A stretch of DNA of 20,000 bases from Chiloscyllium plagiosum (Eukaryota). A program made the translations under genes and the position numbers. Shown here one piece after another: positions 345-20,000 of the stretch (the first letter of the stretch is position 1; every line of letters begins with the position of its first letter). Below the pieces are notes generated by a model. It ran no database searches. It was given only the letters and a program-made list of their open reading frames with translations, and was not told the origin of the DNA. The stretch lies in the NCBI RefSeq assembly GCF_004010195.1, contig NC_057718.1, positions 99,827,806-99,847,805 on the forward strand, read 5' to 3'.

Positions 345-775
345 AGAGTGGCACTTAACCTGTTGTCTGTCACTGGGTTGTGAGGTCGTGGGTCAAGATT
401 AGAGTGGTGCTGGAAATGCACAGCAGATCAGGCAGCATCCAAGGAGCAGGAAAATTTCGGGCAGGAGCCCTTCATCAGGAATGTGAGGTCTTGGGTTCAA
501 GTCTCACTCCTGAAGAGCAGAAGTTCAGGCAGATACTATAATGCAATAACAAGGAGTGCTGCACTGGATACAGAGGCTGAACTGTCCTGGTAGGTGGGTG
601 CAAAACATCTCATGGCACCATGTTGAAGAAGAGCTGGGATATTTTTCCTTTAATTGACCTCAAGATAGCAGATTGTCACATTGCTGCGTGGGATCTTACT
701 GTGCAGCGATTGATTGCCATATTTCCTACTCGGACAACAGTGACTACACTTCAGAAACATCCTGAGATTCCCAAA
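345..775 (+). mobile_element. Decayed DeuSINE (SacSINE1/AmnSINE-like), interrupted by the 394-481 insertion
   Basis: B-box-like GGGTTCAAGTC at about 493-503. The segment 672-757 (CACATTGCTGCGTGGGATCTTACTGTGCAG...ATTTCCTAC...ACAACAGTGACTACACTTCA) resembles the recalled DeuSINE core. Boundaries approximate. Confidence 0.6.
394..481 (-). mobile_element. Penelope-like terminal fragment with hammerhead core, TSD-flanked
   Basis: Minus strand reads CTGATGA-A-GGGC-TCCT-GCCC-GAAA (478-455). Flanked by the direct repeat TGTGAGGTC(G/T)TGGGT at 379-393 and 482-496. Confidence 0.7.
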
Positions 776-822
776 ACAATGTACTCGATAAATCACATAT
801 TTCTTTTCATCTTTCGTGAAGA

Positions 823-1153
823 GGCAGCACTCTGGCTCTGTGGTTAGCACTGCTGCCTCACAGTACCAAGGACCTGGGTCCAATCCCATCCTCAGGCGTT
901 GTCTGTGTGGAGCTTGTGTCTGCGTGAGTTTCCTCTGGGTGCTCCGATTTCCTCCCACAATCCAAAGATGTGGAAGTTAGGGTGGATTGGCCATGCTTAT
1001 TTTTTCCAGGGTTTGTGCAGGCTAGGTGGGTTAGCCATGGGAAATGCAGGGTTAGGGTAGGGGGTGAGTCTGGGTGGGATGCTGTACGGAGAGTCAGTGC
1101 GGACTTGTTGGGCTGAATGGTCTGTTTCTACACTGTAGGGAGTTCTATGACTC
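823..1153 (+). mobile_element. HE1-type V-SINE, full length, long subtype
   Basis: tRNA-like head (TGGCTCTGTGGTTAGCACTGCTGCCTCACAG), V-domain-like GGTTTCCTCCCACAATCCAAAGATGTG variant, duplicated GTGCAGGCTAGGTGG block, CR1-like tail ending TTCTATGACTCT. Confidence 0.9.
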
Positions 1154-1159
1154 TCCCTA

Positions 1160-1850
1160 CCTCAGTCCCCAGGACCTGATGATATCTGTCCCTGAATAGT
1201 GAGGGATGAGGTTTCTGGGGGCTTTTATGAAATCCTTGTACCCTCTATTGTGAGAGGGCATAGAGAACAGCCAATATATTTCCTTTGTTTAGGAAAGGCA
1301 ACAGGAATAATCTGGGAAATTACAGGCCAGTGAGCCTTACAGCAGTGGTAGGGAAATTATGGAGAAGATTCATATGGGCAGGATTTACTCACATTTGGAA
1401 AAGTGTGGACTTGTCAGTGATAGGCAGCATGGTTTTGTACAGGAGCTGTTGCGTCTCAAAACACGATTGAGTTTTTTTGAGGAAGTGACAAAGATGATTG
1501 ATTGGGCGGCAGATGTTGGCTATGTGGACTTTAGCAAGGCCTTTGACAAAGTCCCTCATGGCAGGCTGGTACAGAAGGTGAAGTCAGATGGGATGCATGG
1601 TGAGCTGGTAAGATTCAAACAGTTCTCTCAGTGCAAACAAGATAAAGTGGTGCTTTTTCCCCACAGCGAGTAGTTCGAGTCTGGAATGCGCTGCCCAGAT
1701 GTGTGTGGGGGCAGGTTGAATTGAGGCAGTCAAGAAGGAATTGGATGATTATTTGGATGAAATGGTGCGCAAGGAGATGGGAAAAAGGCCAGAGTTTGAT
1801 ATGAGGGAGTGCAACGATAGGCCAAATGGCCTCTTCTGCAATTCCATGAT
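1160..1850 (+). mobile_element. Old CR1 LINE remnant (RT part joined to 3' end)
   Basis: Broken frames encode GNYRPVSLT, QHGFV and YVDFSKAFDKVPHGRL. After about 1612 the sequence jumps to the CR1 3' region (TGGAATGCGCTGCC...GGCCAAATGGCCTCTTCTG). Confidence 0.85.
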
Positions 1851-2049
1851 GATGAGTGATATTCTCTGTCTGGAGATGAACACGGAGACGGTTATTCGAA
1901 ACCAGTGCCTCAGAGATACCATCCCAGTTAAAGAACCGGGGGTTATACAGTAGTAGAAATGGCCATATGGCCCACCCTTCTGGTGATGGTGCTAGCTCAT
2001 TGGTCCCACTCTTTTGCTGTTTCCCTGCAGCCTTGCAACAAGGTCCTAG

Positions 2050-2533
2050 TCTTTTATTCCCATGGAGTCCCACATTATCAGGTCAATGATGCGGAAGGCA
2101 ACATCCAACTGTTCACACCTAATGTTCTCCAGAACAGCCTGCAAACTGTCCCAGCAGTCAATCAGGATATCCATGGGGAAAGCATTGAGGGAAGCAAGGA
2201 CACAGAATGTATTCTTTGTGGGGGAATTCGTGGCCCATCGCCAAGTGTGGGTGAGTGGACCAGTCAAAACCTGCCAGCAACACACGCATGGCAGGAGCAA
2301 ATGAAAATATAACCAGCCACACAAATATTGTGGGTAAAAGACCAGGGATAGGAATACTGTGGTGGGGAACTCACCTCCTGACTCCCCAAAAACCTGTCCC
2401 ACCATCTCCAAGCCCCAAGTCAGGAGTGTGTTGGAATATTTCCCCCTGTGCCTGGATGGGAGCAGCTCCAACAACACTGAAGAAGCTCAACCCCATCCAG
2501 GACAAAGCAGCCCCCACTTCATTGGCACCACAT
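2050..2533 (+). mobile_element. Second non-LTR LINE family (CR1/L2 group), fragmented ORF2, 5' part
   Basis: ALREARTQNVFFVGEFVAH resembles the APE endonuclease GDFN block. HLLTPQ, QVRSVLEY and WMGAAPTTLKKLNPIQDKAA resemble the post-RT region. The element resumes at about 3217. Confidence 0.65.
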
Positions 2534-3214
2534 GTGGGTAATCCAAGATGGAGGACAGGAAAGAGTTGTGGCTGTCAGAGCTTGCTCCTTTTTTTGAGGT
2601 ATTTTAGGTGTTGGAGGTGATTTCCTCGAATCCCAGGAGCAGCAATTACTGTTTTATACGCAGTTGCTTTCTTTTGGAACTTTTGAGGGAGGAAGGATCA
2701 AAAAAAAGGCACTTTAAAAGGAGGAGCAGAACAATTGTAGAGACCACACTTTCCGTGAGAGAGAGAGAAAACTACACTGCTGTCTGACGCAGCAGTGAAT
2801 CTACACAGCTAGTGCCTTTGCTGTTTGAGTTCATATAGTTCTGGACATCGGAGTGTGTCTAAGAAAAATGAACAAACAACAAAATTCACAGCTGATCCTG
2901 GAGGAAGCTGTGTGGGAGAGCTCACAGCACACAAACAGATAAGTGTATTGTTTTTAAGTGTAACCTTGCTGTAAGTCTACAGCAGTAAATAGAGTGGGTT
3001 CTTTCTCGATTGTATGTTTTATTGAGATTTGTCTCTTGATTACAATTACAATATTTAAAAGGCATCTGGATGGGTACATGAATAGGAAGAGTTTGGAGGG
3101 AAATGGGCCAAATGCTGGTAAATGAGACTAGATTAATTTAGGATATCTGGTCAGCATGGATGAGTTGGACTGAAGGGTCTGTTTCCCTGCTGTACATCTC
3201 TATGACTCTATGAC
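2534..3214 (+). mobile_element. Composite insertion: about 510 bp non-coding head fused to a CR1 3' tail
   Basis: Splits the host LINE (GGCACCACAT | ACAAAAACATCAACTCCCTCC). 3045-3214 is a clear CR1 3' end with the CTCTATGACTCTATGAC tail. The identity of the head is uncertain. Confidence 0.6.
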
Positions 3215-3216
3215 AT

Positions 3217-3605
3217 ACAAAAACATCAACTCCCTCCATCACTGACACTCAGTAGCAGCAGTGTGTACCATCTACCAGACGCACTGCAGAAGTTCACTAA
3301 AGATTCTTAGACAGCACCTTCCAAACCCAAGACCACTTCCATCTAGAAGGACAAGGGCAGCAGATACATAGGAGCACCACCACCTGCAAGTTCCCCTCCA
3401 AGTCACCCACCATCCTAACTTGGAAATATATTGCCCATTCCTTCAGTGTCAGTGGGTGAAAATCCTGGAATTCTCTCCCTAAGGGCATTGTGAGTCAACC
3501 CACAGCACATGGACTGCAGCTCACCCTTACCTTCACCAGGGGGCAACTAGGGACAGGCAATAAATGTCAATGATGCCCAAGTCCCATGAATGACTAAATA
3601 ATAAA
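3217..3605 (+). mobile_element. Second LINE family, 3' end
   Basis: Homologous to 6797-7072 (AGAAGGACAAGGGCAGCAGA...CCTGCAAGTTCCCC...ACTTGGAAATATATTG). Ends CCCATGAATGACTAAATAATAAA. Confidence 0.8.
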
Positions 3606-4219
3606 GGAAATTATCTTCAGTCTTTCGTCCTTATTATTGCCGAGTGAGTAATCTCAGGAAGTGAAAATGACTGTCAATACTCTCAGCAGCCGCTCGCTGC
3701 ACATTTTCAACTGGGGTGTGTAAAACGCAGCGGGTAAATTCATTTGCAACTAACTGTTCCAAAAGGACACAGTTGGAGGGAAAGGGCAGCCAGTAATTTT
3801 CAATGCTTTAATCCCCACAGCTTTTCTGTTCAGGCCCCAGTTTACAGCTATAAATGAGGATCAATTTTTCAGAAACAGTTGAATGTATTGATTTTAATGC
3901 TGTTTCCATGGTGATATTGGTGCAGGAGAGGTCGGCGATAAGGAGAAGTATTCATAGGGGATTAGTTTTGAATATTTTGACAACCCAGAGTTTTTTCCCT
4001 GCTTCCTGCAGCTATTGAATGCAATGACTCTGAGTCTGTATTCAGATGCAAATACAGTTGCCCGCATGTTAACTGTGGGGAGGTCACTCAGCATCACCTG
4101 GTGTTACATGCATGGTGTGCGATCAGAGATCCAAGCATCTACCTCCTCTGTCACCTCCCCTCAACGATGGCCAGAGAGATTTCTGCTCTTCCTGAGTCAA
4201 ACTGGACTTTTAAAAACAA

Positions 4220-4536
4220 AATCATTTACGGAACAAGGGTGTCACTGGCTGGGCCAGCGATTATTGCCCTGGGCAGTTAAGTGTCAGCCATATTGGGGAT
4301 GGTCTGGAGTCACGTGTAGACTAGACTAGGTAAGGATGGCAGATTTCCTTCCCTAAAGGACATGAATGAACAAGATGGGATTTATTTTTACAACAATCGG
4401 TTTTATGCTCACCGTTAGTCCAAGTCTTTAATAGAGTTTTATTGATTTGAAATTTCACTACCTGCAAACTAGAGATTCCAATCCCTCGGACTGCATTGTT
4501 AGTCCAGTGACTTTACCCTCCGGCCTCCACCTCCCC
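4220..4536 (-). mobile_element. tRNA-derived SINE, family 2 (decayed)
   Basis: Shares CTGGAGTCAC(G/A)TGTAG..TAGAC.AGGTAAGGATGGCAG.TTTCCTT with 19030-19378. Its tail resembles the 3' end of the second LINE family. Confidence 0.7.
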
Positions 4537-4709
4537 TGTGCCCACAGGCTGGACTAAGGCCACCGATTTGGCATCGGCGAACCAACATCTTGCAGCTACC
4601 TCAGTTCCTTCGACAGCCTGCGTGTGGTAGTGATGGTGGTGGTGGGTCACCTCCCATCCAACATGTGTTGCTCCCCTTCAAGGGGTATCCAGAGTCTTTT
4701 CCTGGCCAA

Positions 4710-4730
4710 CCCCCCCCCCCCCCCCCCCCC
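4710..4730 (+). repeat. C21 homopolymer
   Basis: 21 consecutive C. Confidence 0.95.
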
Positions 4731-4992
4731 TCCACCACGCTCCCCATCTCGCTGCGCACTCTTCCCCCACTCCTCACTAAATGGGGCAAGAGGCTTGGTT
4801 AACAGTGGAGGGGGTGGTGGAGTGTACTGTCTGAGGAGCATGGATTAAACGCACTCTCTGGAACCCAATGCTCAATCACATTGGGTTCTTGCCTGAGACC
4901 AAATTCTGAAGCTGAGACATGGAAATGTGACTGAAAGTTTCAGGCAGATAGCACTTTGGAAAAGGGAAAGTGGGCAGGTATAGCAAGGAACA

Positions 4993-5053
4993 TTGTACAT
5001 GCTCCTAACACCATTTCGAGTCATAGAGATGTACAGCACGGAAACAGACCCTT
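4993..5053 (+). repeat. 61-bp exact direct repeat, copy 1
   Basis: Identical to 6294-6354. Confidence 0.95.
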
Positions 5054-5370
5054 CGGTCCAACTCGTCCATGCCGACCAGATACCCAAAATTAATCTAGTC
5101 CCATTTTCCAGCACTTGGCCCATATTCTTCCAAACCCTTCCTCTTCATGTCCCCATCTAGATGCCTTTTAAATGCTGCAATTGTACCAGCATCCACCACT
5201 TCGTCTGGAAGCTCATTCCATACACACACCATCCTCTGCATGAAAAAGTTGCCCCTTAGGTCCATGTTAAATCTTTCCCCTCTCACTGTAAACCTACGTC
5301 TCTCTAGTTTTGGACTCCCCCACCCCAGGGAAAAGACCTTTATCTATTTACCCTATCCATGCCCCTCATT
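5018..5370 (-). mobile_element. CR1/HER1-type LINE 3' fragment
   Basis: Minus frame RGERFNMDLRGNFFMQRMVCVWNELPDEVVDAGTIAAFKRHLD plus the 3' UTR and tail. Confidence 0.92.
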
Positions 5371-5631
5371 CAATACAGGTGTTTAAAATTATGATGGGTT
5401 TCAGGAGGGCTGGACATCAGAGAACACAAATTTAAGATACAGTGAAGGGACCAGGTTTTGTATAAAAAAGGGCATATCTCCTGCCACTGCACTCTGGGAT
5501 GTACAGTTGTCACCAGCTGGGCAATTGTCACTGCCCAGCTTCAACCAGGGGTGTCCGTTCAGCTTGGCATTAGCGTCACTGGGTCTAGTGTTGCCCTGGT
5601 CATTGTGCCAAACTGGGTGGTAACCAGTTGT

Positions 5632-5947
5632 AACTGTAATTGTACCAGCCTCCACCACTTCCTCTGGCAGCTCATTCCATATACGCACCACTCTCTACAT
5701 CAAAAAGTTGCCCATTAATTCCCTTTTAAATCTTTCCCCTCTCACTCTAAACCTATGCCCTCTAGTTTTAGACTCCCCTAACCCGAAGAAAAGACCTCGT
5801 CTATTTATTCTATCCATGCCCCTCATGAGTTTATAAACCTCTATAAGGTCACCCCTCAGTCTCCGACACTCCAGGGAATACAGCCTCAGCTTATTCAACC
5901 TATCCCTGTAACTCAAATCCTCCAACCCTGGCAACATCCTTGTAAAT
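5632..5947 (-). mobile_element. CR1/HER1-type LINE fragment (ORF2 C-terminus)
   Basis: MLPGLEDLSYRDRLNKLRLYSLECRRLRGDLIEVYK and WNELPEEVVEAGTI. Confidence 0.92.
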
Positions 5948-6293
5948 TAGAGTGACGACTGCTTAGACATCAATTGGAGGTTGTTGAGTCAGTGAGAGGG
6001 AAGCTACAGAAGTTCACTTTAGTTTCCCAACAACGCAATAACTCTTACAGCACAGTTTGGCGACATAGTCTCACAGCAAATGAAATACGACATTTATACA
6101 CGTTCTGTATAAGGAATTGAGGGAGGTGGTTCAGAGCTCTGCAGTGCTGCCAATACATTGCTATAGCAAACCCTGAACTCTTTATGAACCAGGCATCACC
6201 TTCAATTCCCACAACTTTCAGCTTCATTTGTGGCCATCAAGTGAAACTTTATAAAGTGCACTTTGGAAGTTTCCGGGCTCAATCTTGAATGGT

Positions 6294-6354
6294 TTGTACA
6301 TGCTCCTAACACCATTTCGAGTCATAGAGATGTACAGCACGGAAACAGACCCTT
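6294..6354 (+). repeat. 61-bp exact direct repeat, copy 2
   Basis: Identical to 4993-5053. CR1 homology stops abruptly at 6354. Confidence 0.95.
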
Positions 6355-6485
6355 GGATTATCACACTCTCATTGAGCTTTGTTGGACTCAATGTAAAGCA
6401 GTTATTTACACAGATGTTATACAGAGTTTAGGTTCACTGTGGGTAAACTGCTTCATTACATCACATGGAAGTGAAGATTAATGCA

Positions 6486-6796
6486 TCTCAGTGGTTAGCA
6501 CTGCTGCCTCACAGAACCAGGGTCCCAGGTTCGATTCCAGCCTTGGGCAACTGTCTGTACGGAGTTTGCACATTCTCCTCGTGTCTGCATGGGTTTCCTC
6601 CGGGTGCTCCAGTTTCCTCCCACAGCCCAAAAATGTGCAGGTCAGGTGAGTTGGCCATGCTAAATTGCCCACAGTGTTAGGTACATTAGTCAGAGGGAAA
6701 TAGGTCTGGGTGGGTTTCTCTTTGGAGGTCGGTGTGGACCTGTTGAGCTGAAGGGCCTGTTTCCACACTGTAGGGAATCTAATCTAATCTAATCTA
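6486..6796 (+). mobile_element. HE1-type V-SINE, short subtype
   Basis: CTCAGTGGTTAGCAC, B box GGTTCGATTCC, V-domain, (AATCT)n tail. Confidence 0.92.
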
Positions 6797-7072
6797 TTCG
6801 CACCTTCCCCCAAATCTGTCACCTCTCCCATTGAGAAGGACAAGGGCAGCAGACACATGGAACATCACCCCCTGCAAGTTCCCCTTGAAGGCACTCACCA
6901 TCCTGACTTGGAAATATATTGGTGTTCCTTCAGTATCGCTGGGTCAAAATCATGAAATTCCCTCCCTAAGGGCATTGGTGGACTGACAATACTGGGACTG
7001 CAATGGTTCATGAAGGCAATTCACCACCATCTTCTCAAGGGGCAATTAGGGATGGGCAAGAAATGCTGGGCC
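6797..7072 (+). mobile_element. Second LINE family, 3' fragment
   Basis: Homologous to about 3313-3570. Confidence 0.8.
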
Positions 7073-7328
7073 GTGTATTTGTGTGTGTGTATTTGTATGT
7101 GTGTGTTTGTCTGGGGCTATGTGTGTGAGAGAGTGTGTATATGTATTTGTGTGTATGTATGTGTATGTATTTGTGTGTTGTGTATGTATGTATGTTTGTG
7201 TGTAGGTGTGTGTGTCTGTATGTGTTTGTGTGTGTTTATGTGTATATGTGTGTGATTGTGTGTATGTGTGTGCGTGATTGTGTGTATGTGTGTGTGTATG
7301 TGTCTTTTTGTGTGTGTGTGTTTGTGTG
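7073..7328. repeat. Degenerate (TG)n/(TGTA)n microsatellite
   Basis: About 255 bp of nearly continuous TG alternation. Confidence 0.95.
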
Positions 7329-8571
7329 AATGATTACCACACTTTCTGTCATCACCTCCAGACCCAGAAGTTAAAAATAAACTACACTTTCCCTTTAAGT
7401 TCAAAAGGCTTTGCTGCTGTGTTAGTTAAAATGTATGCACATCCACATCCTAATACAACGATAACACACTGTGAAAACACCATAAATCTCTCAGCGAGAC
7501 AGGCCATTCAGCCCAACCCGTCCTGACCAAGCCCCTCCCACCTTTCCTCCTGGAAGCTGACCATACTGTGAGCCTTTGTCCCAGTCCCCCTCAGCAGCTT
7601 GTCTCCCTGTGGAACACCAGGCTCCTTTACGCACCATGCTTATCTCCCATCAAACATACCTGCCTCAGGTAAGATCATCTATTCCTAAATTGTCAGAAGT
7701 CTTTGAATGGCTTACTTGTTTGATCCAAAGTTACTTTCATTCTCTGCTCTCAACCTTGTTGAAGAGCGTGTTTTCTGTTAATGGTTATCCACAGTTAAAC
7801 CCTCTATTTATGTTTACTGAAGCACTGACACCACACCTTAATCACTCATAGCACATAATATAACTGTCACTTCTTAAACAAACACTTTGTTGCCCGCACT
7901 GGCTGAGGTAGCCATGAAGGACTCACCTTCTCAATCTCTCCCCTCGCCCGAGGCATAGTGACCCTGGGCTTAACCTCCAATGAGAGAGCAGCCCTATGGT
8001 CCATTGGGACTATGGCAACCTTATCTTCTATGTTTCAGAAGACAGGCTCTGAATTACTCTCACGGCACCTTCAAAACCGTTTATTTATCGGCGAACGTGT
8101 TATTTAAAGAAAAAAGGAATCCTTGATGACCTATAACCTTTGTTTCCTTCAGATGTCCCATTGACAATTCTTCCCAACAAAGACTGGGAGAGACGCTTGC
8201 TCAACTGTGAGGGCAAGCTGTAAGTTTATCTCAGTACAGGCCTGAGGACTAGCTGGACGTAAGGAGTACCAGCGAGAGCTCCCAGAGTCACTGGGAGCCC
8301 ACCGGCTGTCAGAGAGTAATGGATATGGGATTGTCAAGACCAACAACCATACCACCAGGCACAGGGCTGAAAGCAGGAGATGACATTTGTTAAGCCTTTG
8401 AGAATCCATGGGGTCCACAGGATGGGCCAGTCTTCCTGAATCCACAGGACAGCAGTGATGCAAGGTTATACTGGGATTGTTTGGCACAGAGTGATGCAGC
8501 TTAGTGAGCTGATTTCAACTGGCAGTAATTAATCGTGGGCTGCGGGAGAACCTCCAGCCAGCACGGTCTCA

Positions 8572-8882
8572 TGTAGCACATGTATGCACACACGTGCAGC
8601 ACCTACACGTGTGAAGCACCCACGCACATGTGCAGCACCCACACACTCGTGCAGCACCCACACACATGCAGCACATATGCATGCATGCAGCATATATGCA
8701 CACACGTGCAGCACCCACACATATGCAGCACCCACACACATGCAGCACATATGCACACACGTGCAGCACCCACACACGTGTAGCACCCACACACATGCAG
8801 CACATATGCACACACGTGCAGCACCCACACACATGCAGCACCCACATACATGCAGCACATATACACACATGTACACACACGT
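8572..8882. repeat. Minisatellite with a 55-bp higher-order unit
   Basis: 17-mers TGCAGCACCCACACACA and 21-mers TGCAGCACATATGCACACACG arranged A-A-B. Confidence 0.92.
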
Positions 8883-9033
8883 AGATACCATACATTATGT
8901 GGTGGGTCAGCATTCCAGAGACAAATGATCTATTTGAAGACCCAAATGCATGCAGCTAGGAACCACCAATCCCCAGCAACCAAGAATGAAAACCAGGTTA
9001 ATTTTAATTCCCCATCTTTACTCCAGTTAATAA

Positions 9034-9155
9034 CAGTTCTGAAGAAGAGTCATATCAAACTCAAAACATTAGCTGTTTCTCTCTCCACATACACCATCCA
9101 GCACTTCTGATTTCATTTCAGATCTCCAGCATCCACTGTATTTCATTTTCATTTG
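9034..9155 (+). mobile_element. Decayed Penelope-like terminal fragment with a degenerate hammerhead core
   Basis: CAGTT-CTGAAGA-A-GAGT...ACTC-AAAACATT-AGCTG. Downstream TTTCTCTCTCCACA...TCCAGCA...CAGATCTCCAGCATCC parallels 14600-14708. Confidence 0.55.
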
Positions 9156-9212
9156 ACTTTGGTCATGGTCAGATGAATTCAAGAAGTCCACTCATCACGG
9201 CTGTAAATTTAT

Positions 9213-9350
9213 CACGATGGCTCAGTGGTTAGCACTTCTGCCTCACAGCACTGGGGACCCAGGTTCGATTCCACCCTCGGGTAACTGCCTGTGTGGAGTT
9301 TGCACATTCTCCCCATGTCTGTGTGAGTTTCCTCCCACAGTCCAAAGATG
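9213..9350 (+). mobile_element. HE1-type SINE, 5' half (split by CR1)
   Basis: A box TGGCTCAGTGG, B box GGTTCGATTCC. Breaks at CCAAAGATG. Confidence 0.92.
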
Positions 9351-9721
9351 TCCTCACGGGGGAGAGGGCCCAGCAAGAGGTCCTTGTCCACATTGGAACC
9401 AACGACATAGGAAGGGAAAAGGTTGAGATTCTGAAGGGAAATTACAGAGAGCTAGGCAGGAATTTAAAAAGGAGGTCCTCGAGAGTAGTAATATCTGGAT
9501 TACTCCCAGTGCTACGAGCTAGTGAGGGCAGGAATAGGAGGACAGAGCAGATGAATGCATGGCTGAGGAGCTGGTGTATGGGAGAAGGATTCACATTTTT
9601 GGATCATTGGAATCTCTTTTGGGGTAGAAGTGACCTGTACAAGAAGGACGGATTGCACCTAAATTGGAAGGGACTAATATACTGGCAGGGAGATTTGCTA
9701 GAACTGCTTGGGAGGATTTAA
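9351..9721 (+). pseudogene. CR1 ORF1 remnant, SGNH/GDSL esterase-like domain
   Basis: VLVHIGTNDIG (block III) and YKKDGLHLN (block V DxxH). N-terminus missing; apparent frameshift near the end. Confidence 0.85.
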
Positions 9722-9839
9722 GCTAGTAAGGTCGGTGGGTGGGACCCAGGGAGATAGTGAGGCAAGAGATCGATCTGAGACGGGTACAGCTGAGAACAGA
9801 AGTGAGTCAAACAGTCAGGGCAGGCAGGGACAAGGTAGG

Positions 9840-12470
9840 ACTAATAAATTAAACTGCATTTATTTCAATGCAAGGGACCTAACAGGGAAGGCAGCTGAAC
9901 TCAGGGACATCATAGCAATTACAGAAACATGGCTCAGGGATGGGCAAGACCGGCAGCTTAATGTTCCAGGATACAAATGCTACAGAAAGGATGGCAAGAG
10001 AGGAGGGGGAGTGGCATTTTTGATAAGGGATAGCATTACAGCTGTGCTGAGGGAGGATATTCCCGGAAATACACTCAGGGAAGTTATTTGGGTGGAACTG
10101 AGAAATAAGAAAGGGATGATCACCTTATTGGGATTGTATTATAGACCCCCTAATAGTCAGAGGGAAATTGAGAAACAAACTTGAAAGGTGATCCCAGCTA
10201 TCTGTAAGAATATTAGGGTGGTTATGGTAGGGGATTTTAACTTTCCAAACATAGACTGGGACTGCCAGAATGTTAAGGGTTTAGATGGAGAAGAATTTGT
10301 TAAGTGTGTACAAGAAAATTTAGAAAAGGATAGACCAGATCTAAAAGTTGAAGTTCTAAATTGGAGAAAGGCCAATTTTGACGGTATTAGGCAAGAACTT
10401 TCAAAAGCTGATTGGGGGCAGATGTTGGCAGGTAAAGGGACGGCTGGAAAATGGGAAGCCTTCAGAAATGAGATAATAAGAATCCAGAGAAAATATATTC
10501 CTATCAGGGTGAAAGGAAAGGCTGATAGGTATAGGGAATGCTGGATGACTAAAGAAATTAAGGGTTTGGTTAAGAAAAAGAAGAAGCATATGTAAGGTGT
10601 AGACAGGATAAATCAAGTAAATACTTAGAAGAGTATAAAGGAAGTAGGAGTATACTAAAGAGGGAAATCAGGAGGACAAAAAGGGGACATGAGATAGCTT
10701 TGGCAAATAGAATTAAGGAGAATCCAAAGAGTTTTTACAAATATATTAAGGACAAAAGGGTAACTAGGGAGAGAATAGGGCCCCTCAAAGATCAGCAAGG
10801 CGGCCTTTTTGTGGAGCTGCAGAAAATGGGGGAGATACTAAATGAATATTTTACATCAGTATTTACTGTGGAAAAGGATATGGAAGATATAGACTGTAGG
10901 GAAATAAGTGGTGACATCTTGCAAAATGTCCAGATTACAGAGGAGGAAGTGCTGGATGTCTTGAAACGGGCAAAGGTGGATAAATTCCCAGGACCTGATC
11001 AGGTGTACCTGAGAACTCTGTGGGAAGCTAGAGAAGTGATTGCTGGGCCTCTTGCTGAGATATTTGTATCATTGATAGTCACATGTGAGGTGCCGGAAGA
11101 CTGGAGGTTGGCTAGTGTGGTGTCACTGTTTAAGAGGGGCGGTAAGACCAAGCCAGCGAACTATAGACCAGAGAGCCTGTCCTCGGTGGTGGGCAAGTTG
11201 TTGGAGGGAATCCTGAGGGACAGGATGTACATGTATTTGGAAAGGCAAAATCTGATTAGGGATAGTCAACATTGCTTTGTGCGTGGGAAATCATGTCTCA
11301 CAAACTTGATTGAGTTTTTTGAAGAAGTAACAAAGATGATTGATGAGGGCAGAGCAGTAGATGTGATCTAGTTGGACTTCAGTATGGCGTTCGACAAGGT
11401 TCCCCATGGGAGACTGATAAGCAAGGTTAGATCTCACGGAATACAGGGAGAACTTGCCATTTGGATACAGAACTAGCTCAAAGGTAGAAGACAGAGGGTG
11501 GTGGTGGAAGATTGTTTTTCAGATTGGAGGCCTGTAACCAGTGGAGTGCCACAAGGATCGGTGCTGGGTCCACTACTTTTTGTCATTTACATAAAGATTT
11601 GGATGTGAGCATAAGAGGTACAGTTAGTAAGTTTGCAGATGACACCAAAATTGGAGGTGTAGTGAAGAGCAAAGAGGGTTACCTCAGATTACAACAGGAT
11701 CTGGACCAGATGGGCCAATGGGCTGAGAAGTAGCAGGTGGAGTTTAATTCAGATAAATGCGAGATGCTGCATTTTGGGAAAGCAAATCTTAACAGGACTT
11801 ATACACTTAATGGTAAGGTCCGAGGGAGTGTTGCTGAACAAAGAGACCTTGGAGTGCAGGCTCATAGCTCCTTGAAAGTGGAGTCGCAGGTAGATAGGTT
11901 AGTGAAGGCGGCGTTTGGTATGCTTTCCTTTATTGGTCAGAGTATTGAGTACAGGAGTTGGGAGGTCATGTTGCGGCTGTACAGACTGTTGGTTAGGCCA
12001 CTGTTGGAATATTGCGTGCAATTCTGGTCTCCTTCCTATCGGAAAGATGTTGTGAAACTTGAAAGAGTTCAGAAAAGATTTACAATGATGTTGCCAGGGT
12101 TGGAGGGTTTGAGCTACAGGGAGAGGCGGAACAGGCTGGGGTTGTTTTCCCTGGAGTGTCGGAGGCTGAGGGGTGAGCTTATAGAGGTTTACAAAATTAT
12201 GAGGGGCATGGATAGGGTAAATAGGCAAAGTCTTTTTCCTGGGGTCGGGGAGTCCAGAACTAGAGGGCATAGGTTTAGGGTGAGAGGGGTAAGATAGACA
12301 AGAGACCTAAGGGGCAACTTTTTCATGCAGAGGATGGTACGTGTATGGAATGATCTACCAGAGGACGTGGTGGAGGCTGGTACAATTGCAACATTTAAGA
12401 TGCATTTGGATGGGTATATGAATAGGAAGGGTTTGGAGGGATATGGGCCGGGTGCTGGCCGGTGGGACTA
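9840..12470 (+). pseudogene. CR1 ORF2 pseudogene (APE endonuclease and reverse transcriptase)
   Basis: YFNAR, ITETWL, GGGVAF, YYRPP, GDFNFP, NYRPESL, KFADDTK, RDLGV, RPLLEYCVQFWSP. Broken by several stops and frameshifts (ORF pieces end at 10184, 10595, 11371, 11733, 12297). Confidence 0.95.
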
Positions 12471-12550
12471 GATTGGGTTGGGATATCTGGTCGGCATGGA
12501 CGGGTTGGACCGAAGCGTCTGTTTCTGTGCTGTACATCTCTATGACTCTA

Positions 12551-12749
12551 TGTGCAGGTTAGGGTGGACTGGCCATGCTAAATTGCCCCATATTGTCCAG
12601 GGGATGTGCAGGCTAGGTGAGTTGGCCATGGGAAATGCAGAGTTGCAGGGATGGGGTAGCAGGGTGGGAATGGGTGGGATGCTGTTTGGAGGGCCGGTGT
12701 GGACTTGATGGGTTGAATGGCCTGCTTCCACACTGTAGGGATTCTATGA
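12551..12749 (+). mobile_element. HE1-type SINE, 3' half (continues 9213-9350)
   Basis: Resumes TGTGCAGGTTAGGGTGG and ends ACACTGTAGGGATTCTATGA. Confidence 0.92.
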
Positions 12750-13297
12750 AAAGCTTCTTAAATATGATAAGGGATTCTCTATCACCTCTACCACCCTCTC
12801 AGGAAATGAGTTCCAGATTCCCACCACCCTCAGAATGAAAACATTCCCTTACAATCCAACGAGACCTCCTGCCCCTTACCTTAAACCTCTGTCCCCCCCC
12901 CCTCCAGTCACTGAACCCTCCATCATAGGGAAATATTTCTTCCAATCTGTACCCCTCAATCATACCCTGAGTTAGTCTCTACTGCTCTAAGGAATGAAAC
13001 TCCAGTCTGTCCAATCTCTCCTCATAACTACAGGGTCCCCACCCCCCGCTATCCGAAAGTGGAGTGTTCCTGTGAAACCTCTCGTAAGGAGAAATGGCGT
13101 TAAGCGAAGAAGCATGTATGTATATGGGAAAGATTTCGCCTTTTCTCATAAAAGCGAAAATCCTCTTCGGATTCTTTTGGTTAGCGAAGACAGCTACTAA
13201 CGCAATGATATGGAGGTGCTGGTGTTGGGCTGGGGTGTACAAAGTTAAAAAAAATCCACACAACACCAGGTTACAGTCCAATAGGTTTATTTGGAAG

Positions 13298-13332
13298 CAC
13301 TAGCTTTCTGAGCGCTGCTCCTTCATCAGGTG
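13298..13332 (-). ncRNA. Minimal type I hammerhead ribozyme motif
   Basis: CAC-CUGAUGA-AG-GAGC-AGC-GCUC-A-GAAA-GCUA-GUG on the minus strand. Confidence 0.65.
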
Positions 13333-13388
13333 ATTGTGGTGTATAAGATTGTAAGACACCACAGTCTTACAATCTTATTCTCCACAAC

Positions 13389-13423
13389 CACCTGATGAAG
13401 GAGCAGTGCTCAGAAAGCTAGTG
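13389..13423 (+). ncRNA. Minimal type I hammerhead ribozyme motif
   Basis: CAC-CUGAUGA-AG-GAGC-AGU-GCUC-A-GAAA-GCUA-GUG. Stem I CAC/GUG, palindromic AGCU stem III, CUA triplet. Confidence 0.65.
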
Positions 13424-14500
13424 CTTCCAAATAAACCTGTTGGTACTAACGTAGGTCTTTCACAAAAGGAAAGTAGCGTAAAGCAAACTTTCGAAAAGCG
13501 GGGGAAACCTGTAAAACTCTCCAGCCCAGGCAACATCCAGGTAAACTAAATACCTGAAAAAAAACTGTTTCTGAAACTATTTCTGCATTGGCAATAGTTG
13601 AAGGTACTGACTCAAATCTTTCCCATCTTCCCCTACTGAAAGGCTGTCTTATTATCCCAGTAGGATTATCATCACCCTGGCTGGTTCCCTGCATTTGGAG
13701 GTAATGACGGCTCCAAGCTCAGGAAACTCTATCTGTTTCACTCTTTGTTTTTCCAGGCGACAAACATCTGTCACTGAGCAGCCAGCCTTACAGACTGAGG
13801 TCGATAATGCACCGAGATCCCAGCTCTCATTCCTGTATAATAGCTGACTAAAAGGTGCCGTAAATCACAGGGGCAAGGCCTGCGCTATAATAGAGACACA
13901 TCACAGGCCATCAGAAACATGTATTGTAATAACATATGCAGTCAAGTAATTTGCAGCTGCTCATTACTTCAGACCAATACAACACAATCAACATACACAA
14001 CTTGTTAATTATGTTGTCAACATTTACTGCTGAGTCTCAACCAGATCTACAAGGAGGAAAAAACAACCCTCCACCCCAACTAGCTTTGTCACTCCAAGAC
14101 AATCAGCTACAGAAGTGAATTCTACATCATTTAATTCTTCAGCACTTCACCCTCCTAGAACAACCTACAGATAATTTATTCCAGATTAACATGAAAATAC
14201 GGCCAAAGACATTTTGGAAGCCAACTGGGGATATTTTCACATGATTCTGCTTGACTGTGTGGAGCCAAGAATATGATTAATCATTCCTTAATAGGGTTTG
14301 CAGGAAAATAGACTCTTCAGTAGCTGAGGGTCTGATCTCTTGGATTGTGCCAGAGGTACTGTTTGTGCTGGGTCTGCCCAACAGACTTATCCATCAGCAT
14401 TCACACATCTCTGACCATTCTCGGCTGGGAATAATTTATGTTTTACGCACTCCTGATGTTACCATCTCTTAGCTTATCAAAGCAGGTGAACAGGGAGATT

Positions 14501-14708
14501 TCAAAACCAGACATTGCTGGAAAAGCTCAGCAGGTCTGGCAGCAACTGTGGAGAGAAATCAGAGTTAACGTTCTGAGGAAGGGTCACTCTGGCCTGAAAC
14601 CTTAACTCTGATTTCTCTCCACAGGTGCTGTCAGACCTGCAGAGCTTTTCCAGCAATTTCCAGTTTTTTCCTGATTTAGAGCGTCCGCAGTTCTTTCGGT
14701 TTTTATTT
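14501..14708 (+). mobile_element. Penelope-like fold-back insertion with a hammerhead core in the loop
   Basis: 14-bp TSD TGAACAGGGAGATT (14487-14500 and 14709-14722). 60-bp inverted arms 14513-14572 and 14598-14657. Core CTGAGGA-A-GGGTCA-CTC-TGGCCT-GAAA. Confidence 0.8.
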
Positions 14709-14840
14709 TGAACAGGGAGATTAGTTTATTCTCTGTTCCTGACTAATCTTCCCTTGGGTCAGCAGTCTTTTGACAACAAGGGGAGACTGGTTGGTCTCAG
14801 GATGTTTACGTTGGTACAGGGGAGGCTGAGGAGAGGGATA

Positions 14841-15298
14841 TAGGTATCCCTTGCTTTTCAAAAGTTCACCTTAGGACACTTTGCTGTTCTGAAAGACTTA
14901 CATTATTACCTGTTTTCACTCACCAAAAGAAATCCGAAGGGGATTTTTGCTTTTACAAGAAAAGACAAAATTCTTTTCATGGAGTTTGCACATTCTCCCC
15001 GTGTCTGCTTGGGTTTCCTCCAGGTGCTCTGGTTTCCTCCCACAATCCAAAGATGTGCAGGTCAGGTGGATTGGCCATGTTACATTTCCTACAGTGTTAG
15101 GTGCATTAGTCAGAGGGGAAGTGGGTCTGGGTGGGTTACTCTTTGGAGAGTCAATATGGACTGGTTGGGCCGAAGGGCCTGTTTCCACACTGTAGGAAAT
15201 CTAATCTAATCTAAATTAATGCTTCTTCGCTTTCCCCCATTTCAGCTTACAGAAGGTTTCGTAGGAACACTCTGCTTTCGGATAGCGGGGGTTACCTG
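14841..15298 (-). mobile_element. MITE copy 2 (same family as 13031-13511)
   Basis: TA flanks at 14839-40 and 15299-300. Reverse complement begins CAGGTAACCCCCGCTATCCGAAAGCAGAGTGTTCC and is colinear with copy 1. Confidence 0.85.
14980..15214 (+). mobile_element. 5'-truncated HE1-type SINE (short subtype) nested in the MITE
   Basis: Starts at TGGAGTTTGCACATTCTCCCC and ends in (AATCT)n. Confidence 0.92.
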
Positions 15299-15888
15299 TA
15301 CAATAATGAGAAGTATGGACGGTGTGGATAAGAACGCTCCATTACCCTTTGTTCAAGGGTCTATTACCAATGGATTTTGAATTAGGGTAAATGGCAGGAG
15401 GTTGGGAGGGGGACTCAAAAATTAATTGTTTTTACCCCAGAGGGTGGTGGCTACCACAAGCCAAAGGGGTGAGGGAGACAAAACCCTCCATCATGTTTTT
15501 AAATTGCTTGAGGATTTTAGATACGTAACATTTGGGGGCATGAGCCAAGAGCTGGATGGTGGGATTAGACTATGTAACTACTTGTTGGCTAATGTGGGCA
15601 TGATGGAACAATGGGCTCCTTCTGTGCCATACATTTCAATGATGATTTGAGTTCGACAATGACAGTGAAGACACTTTCCCATAATAATGGTGAGGTTCTA
15701 GGGAGATGCAATGGGAGCTCATTAGCCCTAATCACTCCTGTTTTTCTCAACATGCAGATCTCCATAGCCTGCGCATGGCAATGGCCACCCAATCCAGAAG
15801 TCAACATGTATCGCCGTTCCGACCAGTGCAGGCAGGAACACGGAATGTCTGTGTACCTTAGACAGACGTTGCCTATTGAAGGGTTACT

Positions 15889-16058
15889 GAGTCATATGGC
15901 ACGGAAAAAAAAACCTTCAGTCTAACCAGTCCATAATCCCAAACCAAGCTAGTCCCATCTGCCTATGCTTGGCCCATATCTCTCCAAAGTTAAAAATCAC
16001 ACAACACCAGGTTATAATAATATCCTTCCTATAACAGGGAGACGAGACTGGGACATAG
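15889..16058 (-). mobile_element. Patchwork of a CR1 tail, a 30-bp Penelope-like piece and a CR1 ORF2 piece
   Basis: 15889-15988 resembles the CR1 tail. 15985-16015 CAAAGTTAAAAATCACACAACACCAGGTTA matches about 13240-13273. Confidence 0.6.
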
Positions 16059-17285: not shown

Positions 17286-18487
17286 TTCACTTGTTTTCAA
17301 GAGAACAGTTTAAAGTGGCACTGGTGCAGGAAGGCCAGTCCGTTGGCCCTCATTGGCTATCAGTCCATCTTCGTTCCAGCATAGACAAACTCCCTAGGAT
17401 TCCTCAAACATCATCGCTGAGGGTCTAACACCAGAAAGAGCAAAGATCTTCGAGTAGGGCTTTAGAAAGTGACAAGGTTCGAGGTATACCCTGGGACTGT
17501 GTCTGTACCACCCTCTTATTTAAGGGGATTAGACTACGCAAAATATTGAAGGAGATCAGTTCTGATGGCTATTCCACATCTCTGTTCATTTGAAAACAAC
17601 ATTATTCATATATGGTATGCCTCTCACTTCATCAGATGCTGCAGGATAAACAGAGATTCAATTTAGCGTAGGTTTTCTCTTGCTTTGGGTTGGAAGTCCC
17701 TGACAACCATCAGTTACAATGACGAACATCTCCTGTTGGTGCACAGCAGTTATCTCTCTAATGTAATATGTTGGCACAGAACAGAAACTCTCTATCACCT
17801 CACACTGTAGGCTCACAGCTGAATATAATTTTAACCTTCAATACACTCAATCCCAGGCTGCTGAATCTAGTTTTCGACCAAAGCACTATCAAGACACCGA
17901 GTTAATACTCCTGAAGATTTATGTTTTGTTAAATAAACCCTACCTTTGATTTCATTTCAAGGGATTTCGCTAGGAGTTTATCTCTATGATTGATATTCAA
18001 AATAAAACAGGATTGGGAGAATAGCTTCCAGCCTAGAGTTGTTAGGGCAATGGTTTGGCTTATGGAGACCAAGCTGAAATACTGACTGGGAACTGCAGGT
18101 CTGTGGCTGCATTTTTCATTTAATATCCAGTTTCTCAGTCTGGATGGCAGGCAGAGATTCTCAGAATACATTAGCCGTGTCAAAGTGTGTTTGAAGCAGT
18201 GATATTTCTCTGAGGCACCAATCTTCCAGCAATCAAACCACACCACAGTAGCTTCTGCCCAAGAGAAATGACTGAAACTATACCCTGTTCAGAGCACAGC
18301 TCAGTATAAACAAGACAACGATTTTCAACATATTTCGTTCAAGTTAAAACATCCTTTGCAACATCTCGGGATTTCCAGCTGCTTGCTTTCATCCCCCGTG
18401 CAATCTTGTAAGTGCTGTTTTTTTTAACACATCATCAGAGCAATACATCCAGCAAAATGCCCTATTCCTGCTCCGATGTTTCTAACA

Positions 18488-19489: not shown

Positions 19490-20000
19490 ATAGAGTCATA
19501 GAGATGTACAGCACGAAAACAGACCCTTCCACCCAACTCGTCCATGCCGACCAGATATCCCAACCCAATCTAGTCCCACCTGCCAGCACCCGGCCCAACT
19601 CCCTCCAAACCCTTCCTATTCATATACCCATCCAGATGCCTCTTAAATGTTGCAATTGTACCAGCCTCCACCACATCCTCTGGCAGCTCATTCCATACAC
19701 ATATCACACTCTGCGTGAAAAAGTTGCCCCTTAGGTCTCTTTTATATCTTTCCCCTCTCACCCTAAACCTATGCCCTCTAGTTCTGGACTCCCCGACCAC
19801 AGGGAAACGATTTTGTCTATTTATCCTATCCATGACCCTCATAATTTTGTAAACCTCTATAAGCTCACCCCTCAGCCTCCAACGCTCCAGGGAAAACAGC
19901 CCCAGCCTATTCAGCCTCTCCCTGTAGCTCAAATCCTCCAACCCTGGCAACATCTTTGTAAATCTTTTCTGAACTCTTTCAAGTTTCACAACATCTTTCC
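19490..20000 (-). mobile_element. Young CR1/HER1-type LINE 3' end, runs off the window
   Basis: Open ORF2 C-terminal frame 19570-19989, closely similar to about 12043-12550. Confidence 0.95.

Follow-up and report, generated by a model that had tools for sequence, protein, structure and literature searches.

Four short non-coding insertions in a stretch of the Chiloscyllium plagiosum genome, together with a fifth, smaller fragment, are probably old, dead insertion products of the terminal module of endonuclease-bearing Penelope-like elements (PLEs), that is, of their pseudo-long terminal repeats (pLTRs), and derive from two lineages; we put the probability of this reading at roughly 0.78. The stretch, called the window throughout, comprises 20,000 nucleotides (nt) of contig NC_057718.1 (positions 99,827,806 to 99,847,805, forward strand). 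PLE insertions have been described as inverted, 5'-truncated pLTRs with a 30-40 bp tail and a target-site duplication (TSD) of 8-10 bp (PMC8557442, PMC3846280, PMC8969392). The window units share with the insertion units of endonuclease-bearing PLEs (PMC3846280, PMC8557442, PMC11167929) the head-to-head arrangement of inverted truncated arms, seen in the insertions E3 and E4 and at many joints in contigs, a tail of 35-39 nt on one arm, and a short TSD of variable length (8-15 bp). Also shared are 3' ends lying about 90-135 nt downstream of a hammerhead motif, at which the template appears to have been uncut. They differ in consisting of the terminal module only, with no open reading frame (ORF) between the arms. 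The case for a PLE origin is made on anatomy because no parent ORF was reached.

Positions are counted from the window start, and those within an element from the CUGA core, whose first C is +1. E1 (394 to 481, minus strand), a single PLE-type end module of the A-group and a distant relative of E4, is flanked by a 15-bp TSD whose copies differ at one position (379 to 393 and 482 to 496, plus strand). E2 (9034 to 9155, plus strand) is a decayed single end module of a family A subfamily, with an internal deletion relative to E4; no TSD was found in its flanks. E3, a member of family B, comprises a long arm (13203 to 13357, minus strand; -28 to +127) with its core at 13329 and a tail at about 13203 to 13240, and a short arm (13364 to 13443, plus strand; -28 to +52) with its core at 13392 and a predicted cut after 13420. 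An exact 8-bp TSD encloses both arms (13195 to 13202 and 13444 to 13451, plus strand). E4, a member of family A, joins an inverted arm (14501 to 14572, minus strand; about +26 to +97), which lacks the core and retains an ACGU palindrome, to a direct arm (14570 to 14708, plus strand; -3 to +136) with a core at 14573 to 14599, a G.U closing pair and a palindrome broken at 14601. The direct arm ends in a 39-nt one-arm extension (14670 to 14708, plus strand), which corresponds to the tail as defined in PMC8557442, and the unit lies within an exact 14-bp TSD (14487 to 14500 and 14709 to 14722, plus strand). E5 (15985 to 16014, minus strand), detected by blastn against family B (85% over 34 columns, E = 4.6e-6), is a 30-nt fragment of that family without a hammerhead that stops at about +90, the inner of the two 3' end positions. 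An earlier, unaided reading of the window (the first-pass annotation) had listed four insertions, three of them with TSDs of 8-15 bp; all four were recovered, E1, E3 and E4 at exact coordinates and E2 with approximate edges, and the three duplications were borne out.

When insert edges were fixed to within 2 nt on either side, a repeat score of 8 was reached by none of 2,000 random intervals. With 25 nt of slack, an 8-bp repeat occurred in 12% of 300 random intervals, so the 8-bp duplication of E3 needed independent support. E3 lies within an element resembling a miniature inverted-repeat transposable element (MITE), which has short terminal inverted repeats and is present as two oppositely oriented copies, one at 13029 to 13515 that holds E3 and one at about 14840 to 15301. 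The second copy, itself interrupted by a short interspersed nuclear element (SINE) at about 14980 to 15215, supplies the empty site: both flanks of E3 align to one single 8-nt interval within it (about 14840 to 14985), and the duplication is confirmed because this copy contains the 8-nt target once.

Of the five pieces, E3 and E4 are head-to-head fold-backs, and the other three (E1, E2 and E5) consist of one arm each. The 5' ends fall at -3 (E1), -5 (E2), -28 (both E3 arms), and -3 and +26 (E4 arms); the 3' ends lie at +85 (E1), +117 (E2), +52 and +127 (E3 arms), and +97 and +136 (E4 arms). The predicted E3 cut falls at +29, where no outer insert end was seen; the inner end of the inverted E4 arm (+26) is a few nucleotides from the cut, but this is the fold-back junction. 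Contigs from organisms A, B and C (96,814, 82,656 and 81,240, respectively) and reads were aligned to positions 13060 to 14890, which contain E3 and E4, with E1, E2 and E5 lying outside. There, the 3' ends of family B form two groups. The inner one lies near +90, where 1007, 1012 and 1043 contigs from three DNA runs have loose ends before 13257 (agreement about 0.5), and the outer one lies near +125, with 757 X16 contigs (agreement 0.36). The two 3' end positions are thus 35-39 nt apart, namely 39 nt in E4 and about 35-37 nt in family B. Fold-back junctions vary among the 15 joints listed of 1378 in contigs. The first-pass annotation had looked to the end profile around the cut site to decide between truncated PLE copies and a class of their own; sampled in contigs rather than genome-wide, the profile places the ends off the cut site, and it leaves a small share of probability to a short master RNA, discussed below.

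The first-pass annotation had also counted at least three families, a number that alignment reduces to two lineages. Compared with 200 shuffles, E1 and E4 (score 53, shuffle maximum 35) and E2 and E4 (score 41) aligned above all shuffles; E1 and E2 did not (23, against a shuffle value of 30), and E3 aligned with none of E1, E2 and E4. At the level of sequence, E1, E2 and E4 are therefore linked through E4 as family A, and E3 and E5 form the separate family B. The two arms of E3 differ at 5 places in 80 nt, and those of E4 at 7 places in 70 nt. In family A, a pyrimidine tract ending in CAG (14610 to 14625 in E4; compare 9075 to 9090) lies about 20 nt past the predicted cut and resembles a splice acceptor. 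PLE pLTRs often contain introns.

E1 to E4 all carry the motif CUGA(U/A/G)GA, followed by an extra A, a hairpin and (G/A)AAA, which agrees with the earlier report of a hammerhead-type core with a differing stem II in each insert; four helix II variants are present. CUGANGA plus A is retained in all five core copies, GAAA in four, and AAAA in E2. A strict scan for the core plus hairpin (stem II of at least 3 pairs) found two cores (E1 and E4) against a mean of 0.115 under a second-order Markov null that ignores repeats, and none of 200 null sequences reached two. A relaxed scan found four (E1, E2, E4 and one at 14826) against 0.37, and E3 was missed in both, the pair that closes its stem II being broken. 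The relaxed match at 14826 was dismissed, having no extra A and no similarity to either family. Rfam returned no hammerhead among 26 matches at E <= 10, just hairpin look-alikes.

Decay is visible in every copy. The E1 core (478 to 455) has an intact helix II; after GAAA it lacks the palindrome, the cut triplet and a partner for helix I, and a short deletion probably occurred there. In the E2 core (9039 to 9066), G12 has changed to A and the palindrome is gone, with helices I and II still able to form. In both arms of E3, an A occupies position 11.1 and breaks the closing pair; the template must therefore already have had it. The combination of a G10.1-C11.1 pair, a palindromic 15.2-16.2, and an NUH triplet with helix I was found in none of the five window cores, so that no window copy is an intact predicted ribozyme. 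Folding was uninformative for monomers and dimers alike, the z-scores of the five decayed cores ranging from -0.2 to -1.0. The contig consensus of family A, by contrast with these copies, forms an intact minimal hammerhead with an extra A after position 9, a five-pair helix II closed by G-C, GAAA, an ACGU palindrome and a four-pair helix I. Contigs of three DNA runs carry the inverted arm of E4 on into this motif (806-1078 at each of its loose ends, behind 14569 and behind 14572; agreement 0.61-0.62). By inspection, with no statistical test, changes between the lineages are compensated in helix I (AGUU/AACU versus CAC/GUG), in helix II and in the palindrome (ACGU versus AGCU). The ribozyme call is thus sound at the family level and fails for the window copies, with cleavage itself a prediction from these structures; motifs of this type can depend on protein (PMC11167929). 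A lone CUGAUGAA on the minus strand at 17635 has no matching GAAA or family similarity and is due to chance or a very old remnant.

These structures share much with the minimal hammerheads that metazoan PLEs carry in their pLTRs (described by Cervera and de la Pena in 2014, PMC4209133): type I topology, no helix III, an additional nucleotide that separates position 9 from 10.1, a palindromic 15.2-16.2, a short helix I, and the occurrence of several families per genome, mostly as solo truncated copies or close opposite-strand pairs. They differ in the length of helix II (4-5 bp, versus the 7-8 bp given for Schistosoma) and in that all window copies are damaged. The sections of that study consulted name fish, coelacanth, Xenopus and reptiles as hosts, and not sharks. 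The tail, fold-back and TSD anatomy, taken with the family-level hammerhead structure, supports one of the two origins first proposed for the insertions, as truncated, often inverted PLE end fragments with minimal hammerheads.

Both families are very abundant. In X1, the depth summed over E3 and E4 was as high as 1.6-1.9 million, compared with 9.75 on the unique flank, which places families A and B at roughly 1e5 times single-copy depth, an order of magnitude and not a copy number, and both are shared with two related organisms. Given this abundance, four or five pieces in 20 kb constitute no special cluster. Motif scans for further copies in viral contigs, metagenome contigs and prokaryote genomes were empty; such collections are not expected to contain the host. 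In organisms B and C, long contigs anchored in unique flank show E4 at this locus; in organism C they also reach part of E3. They carry 31-37 differences per about 1 kb. Of the 215 changed places in X1, 99 are C>T or G>A. The copies are old, common to these organisms and in neutral decay.

How such units might arise can be sketched with the help of one lizard PLE, whose protein was reported in vitro to initiate at two internal sites, one at either boundary of the tail, to extend both DNA strands, to use uncleaved RNA and not to need hammerhead cleavage (PMC11167929); internal two-site initiation and extension of both strands are taken from that work. In the shark, a PLE protein would nick the target with a stagger of 8-15 bp, and reverse transcription would begin within the RNA, roughly 90-135 nt downstream of the core, at one or the other of two sites separated by about 35-40 nt. 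Copying would proceed back through the uncleaved hammerhead and end early. Extension of both target strands would yield a head-to-head fold-back tailed on one arm (E3 and E4), and otherwise one arm would remain (E1, E2 and E5). Each of the features observed in the window would thereby be accounted for. The hammerhead would then be a passenger of the pLTR, one that has since decayed in all window copies.

Several observations weigh against this origin. No reverse transcriptase (RT) or GIY-YIG ORF linked to either family was found among the 6 of 45 window ORFs that were scanned. Matches among those six were to an esterase, to an APE-type endonuclease and, weakly, to an RT; no RT remnant was seen other than this one, whose type we take to be CR1. 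The 5' ends lean to the upstream edge of the hammerhead: three of the four inserts start at most 5 nt from it, and all 15 of the listed joints (of 1378) resume at -9 to -2. The lean is not what plain random truncation gives. The joint cluster may partly be alignment breakdown because subfamilies diverge upstream of about -10, as seen at the X21 loose end behind 13339 and the X13 joint 13306-13383. As proof of a fixed 5' end, the cluster at 13383 to 13390 was rejected, since 15 of 1378 joints were listed and subfamilies diverge just upstream. Shared sequence does continue upstream of family B for 30 nt or more (239 contigs at an agreement of 0.7, with a median loose length of 22); so short a stretch is no proof of a kilobase-long parent.

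A different account of the 5' ends comes from the RNA data, which consist of one poly(A) single-cell run of which 2% was read (4,191 reads aligned of 12.96 million). Family B RNA was mostly in the hammerhead sense (mean depth 874 versus 70 at 13370 to 13431), and family A RNA was balanced. An AATAAA signal in family B (13430 to 13435, plus strand) is followed about 13-15 nt downstream by an A-run in reads from other copies: in 714 reads the sequence passes beyond the short arm at 13443 and continues with five further letters of the family before an A-run, and 267 plus 294 form the mirror image. An ATTAAA variant occurs in 375 reads of run X21 (13430 to 13450). The reads stem from other copies, as 3,931 of 4,191 were under 95% alike and the unique flank had no depth. 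Family B polyadenylation, at about +57, would thus lie within the pLTR and upstream of either start position, at about +90 or +125. If these are PLE transcripts, both 3' start sites would be lost and starts would be left only in the 5' pLTR. Priming there would give a short cDNA running through the hammerhead to the RNA 5' end, integrated directly in the manner of LTR strong-stop DNA, and full-length copies would require read-through or a template jump. That the stubs are such run-off cDNAs, and not failed copies of the 3' end, seems unlikely to us; if true, it would account for the excess of stubs, the 5' lean and the need of PLEs for partial tandems. The family B reads may have their source in a single locus or a small number of loci, possibly 3' untranslated regions of the host that use the signal. 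By title and the start of the abstract, no paper on such a run-off model was listed in searches of the literature outside subscription papers.

A short non-autonomous element derived from the pLTR is also unlikely. Here, a master RNA of about 150-250 nt with its own promoter would have been mobilized in trans by a PLE protein. The extreme depth of the terminal module and the lean of 5' ends to the hammerhead edge are what such an RNA might leave; pLTRs are reported to suffice for mobilization in trans (PMC3846280), and non-autonomous PLEs have been described (PMC8557442). Against it, 5' ends are spread from -28 to about +57 across five pieces, junctions are variable, the upstream sequence of family B is shared, and the joint cluster may be the alignment effect noted above.

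The other origin first proposed, a class of short self-cleaved, retrozyme-like RNAs, is very improbable. Non-LTR retrozymes are described as head-to-tail repeats that ribozymes process into linear and circular monomers (PMC7229834), and PLE-derived retrozymes have been reported in 20 of 31 vertebrates, including one chondrichthyan in which the mean consensus is 363 bp (bioRxiv 10.64898/2026.07.22.740005). The template in this case would have been a ribozyme-cut monomer or its ligated circle. Animal retrozymes resemble the window inserts in being short and non-coding, with a type I hammerhead, a link to PLE pLTRs and a chondrichthyan host, and the family-level hammerheads look functional as dimers, as described for their relatives (PMC4209133). 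Ligation into a circle restores the cut site, and an insert spanning that site is therefore compatible with a circular template. The same sources describe tandem head-to-tail units, each with a hammerhead (a canonical one in the classical retrozymes of PMC7229834), and circular RNA, whereas the window inserts are solo or head-to-head and end at -28 to -3 and +52 to +136. No insert ends at the cut site, no insert in the window is repeated head to tail, and E5 exists as a 30-nt piece without a hammerhead. By eye, positions -58 to -28 of family B do not recur within +1 to +127, so any circle would exceed about 185 nt. No position gathered many RNA read starts or ends and no reads fell on the 15 listed joints, although a single-cell poly(A) library tests this weakly and is unsuited to circles. 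Because their ends lie off the cut site and they form no head-to-tail repeats, the inserts are not retrozymes as defined. Nor would either kind of short element amount to the new system in sharks that had been envisaged, given the chondrichthyan retrozymes and the non-autonomous PLEs (PMC8557442) already on record.

Most doubtful, and already largely refuted, is the view that the inserts are MITE-like elements or CR1-dependent SINEs with a chance resemblance to hammerheads: E3 and E4 are indeed fold-backs with TSDs, and CR1-type and SINE copies lie nearby, but the arms are unequal, TSD length varies (8, 14 and 15 bp), E1, E2 and E5 are single-armed, no CR1 or SINE 3' end in the window matches the inserts, and helix I, helix II and the palindrome vary in concert from one lineage to the other.

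The window also holds other repeats. A near-complete, broken long interspersed nuclear element (LINE) of presumed CR1 type, with remnants of a GDSL esterase, an APE-type endonuclease and an RT, occupies about 9355 to 12551 and interrupts a tRNA-type SINE, which begins near 9213 and picks up again near 12550. An inverted copy at 19490 to 20000 is 93% similar to the 3' part of the LINE. A 61-nt stretch composed of unique-looking flank and a LINE 3' end occurs twice, 1.3 kb apart and 100% identical (4993 to 5053 and 6294 to 6354), and reflects either a recent local duplication or an assembly artefact. A compound minisatellite with units of 17, 19 and 21 nt lies at 8572 to 8875, and a CA/TG-rich microsatellite at 7059 to 7346. 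No tRNA genes were found in the window.

Read as PLE end modules, the inserts add very abundant families with hammerheads of a known type in one more animal group, in an anatomy that has already been described. As found, they are of little significance, and their use is as a data set. With on the order of 1e5 dated stubs in each family, the sites at which PLE reverse transcription begins and ends could be mapped, and the poly(A) site within the family B module would offer a direct test of the origin of pLTRs and partial tandems.

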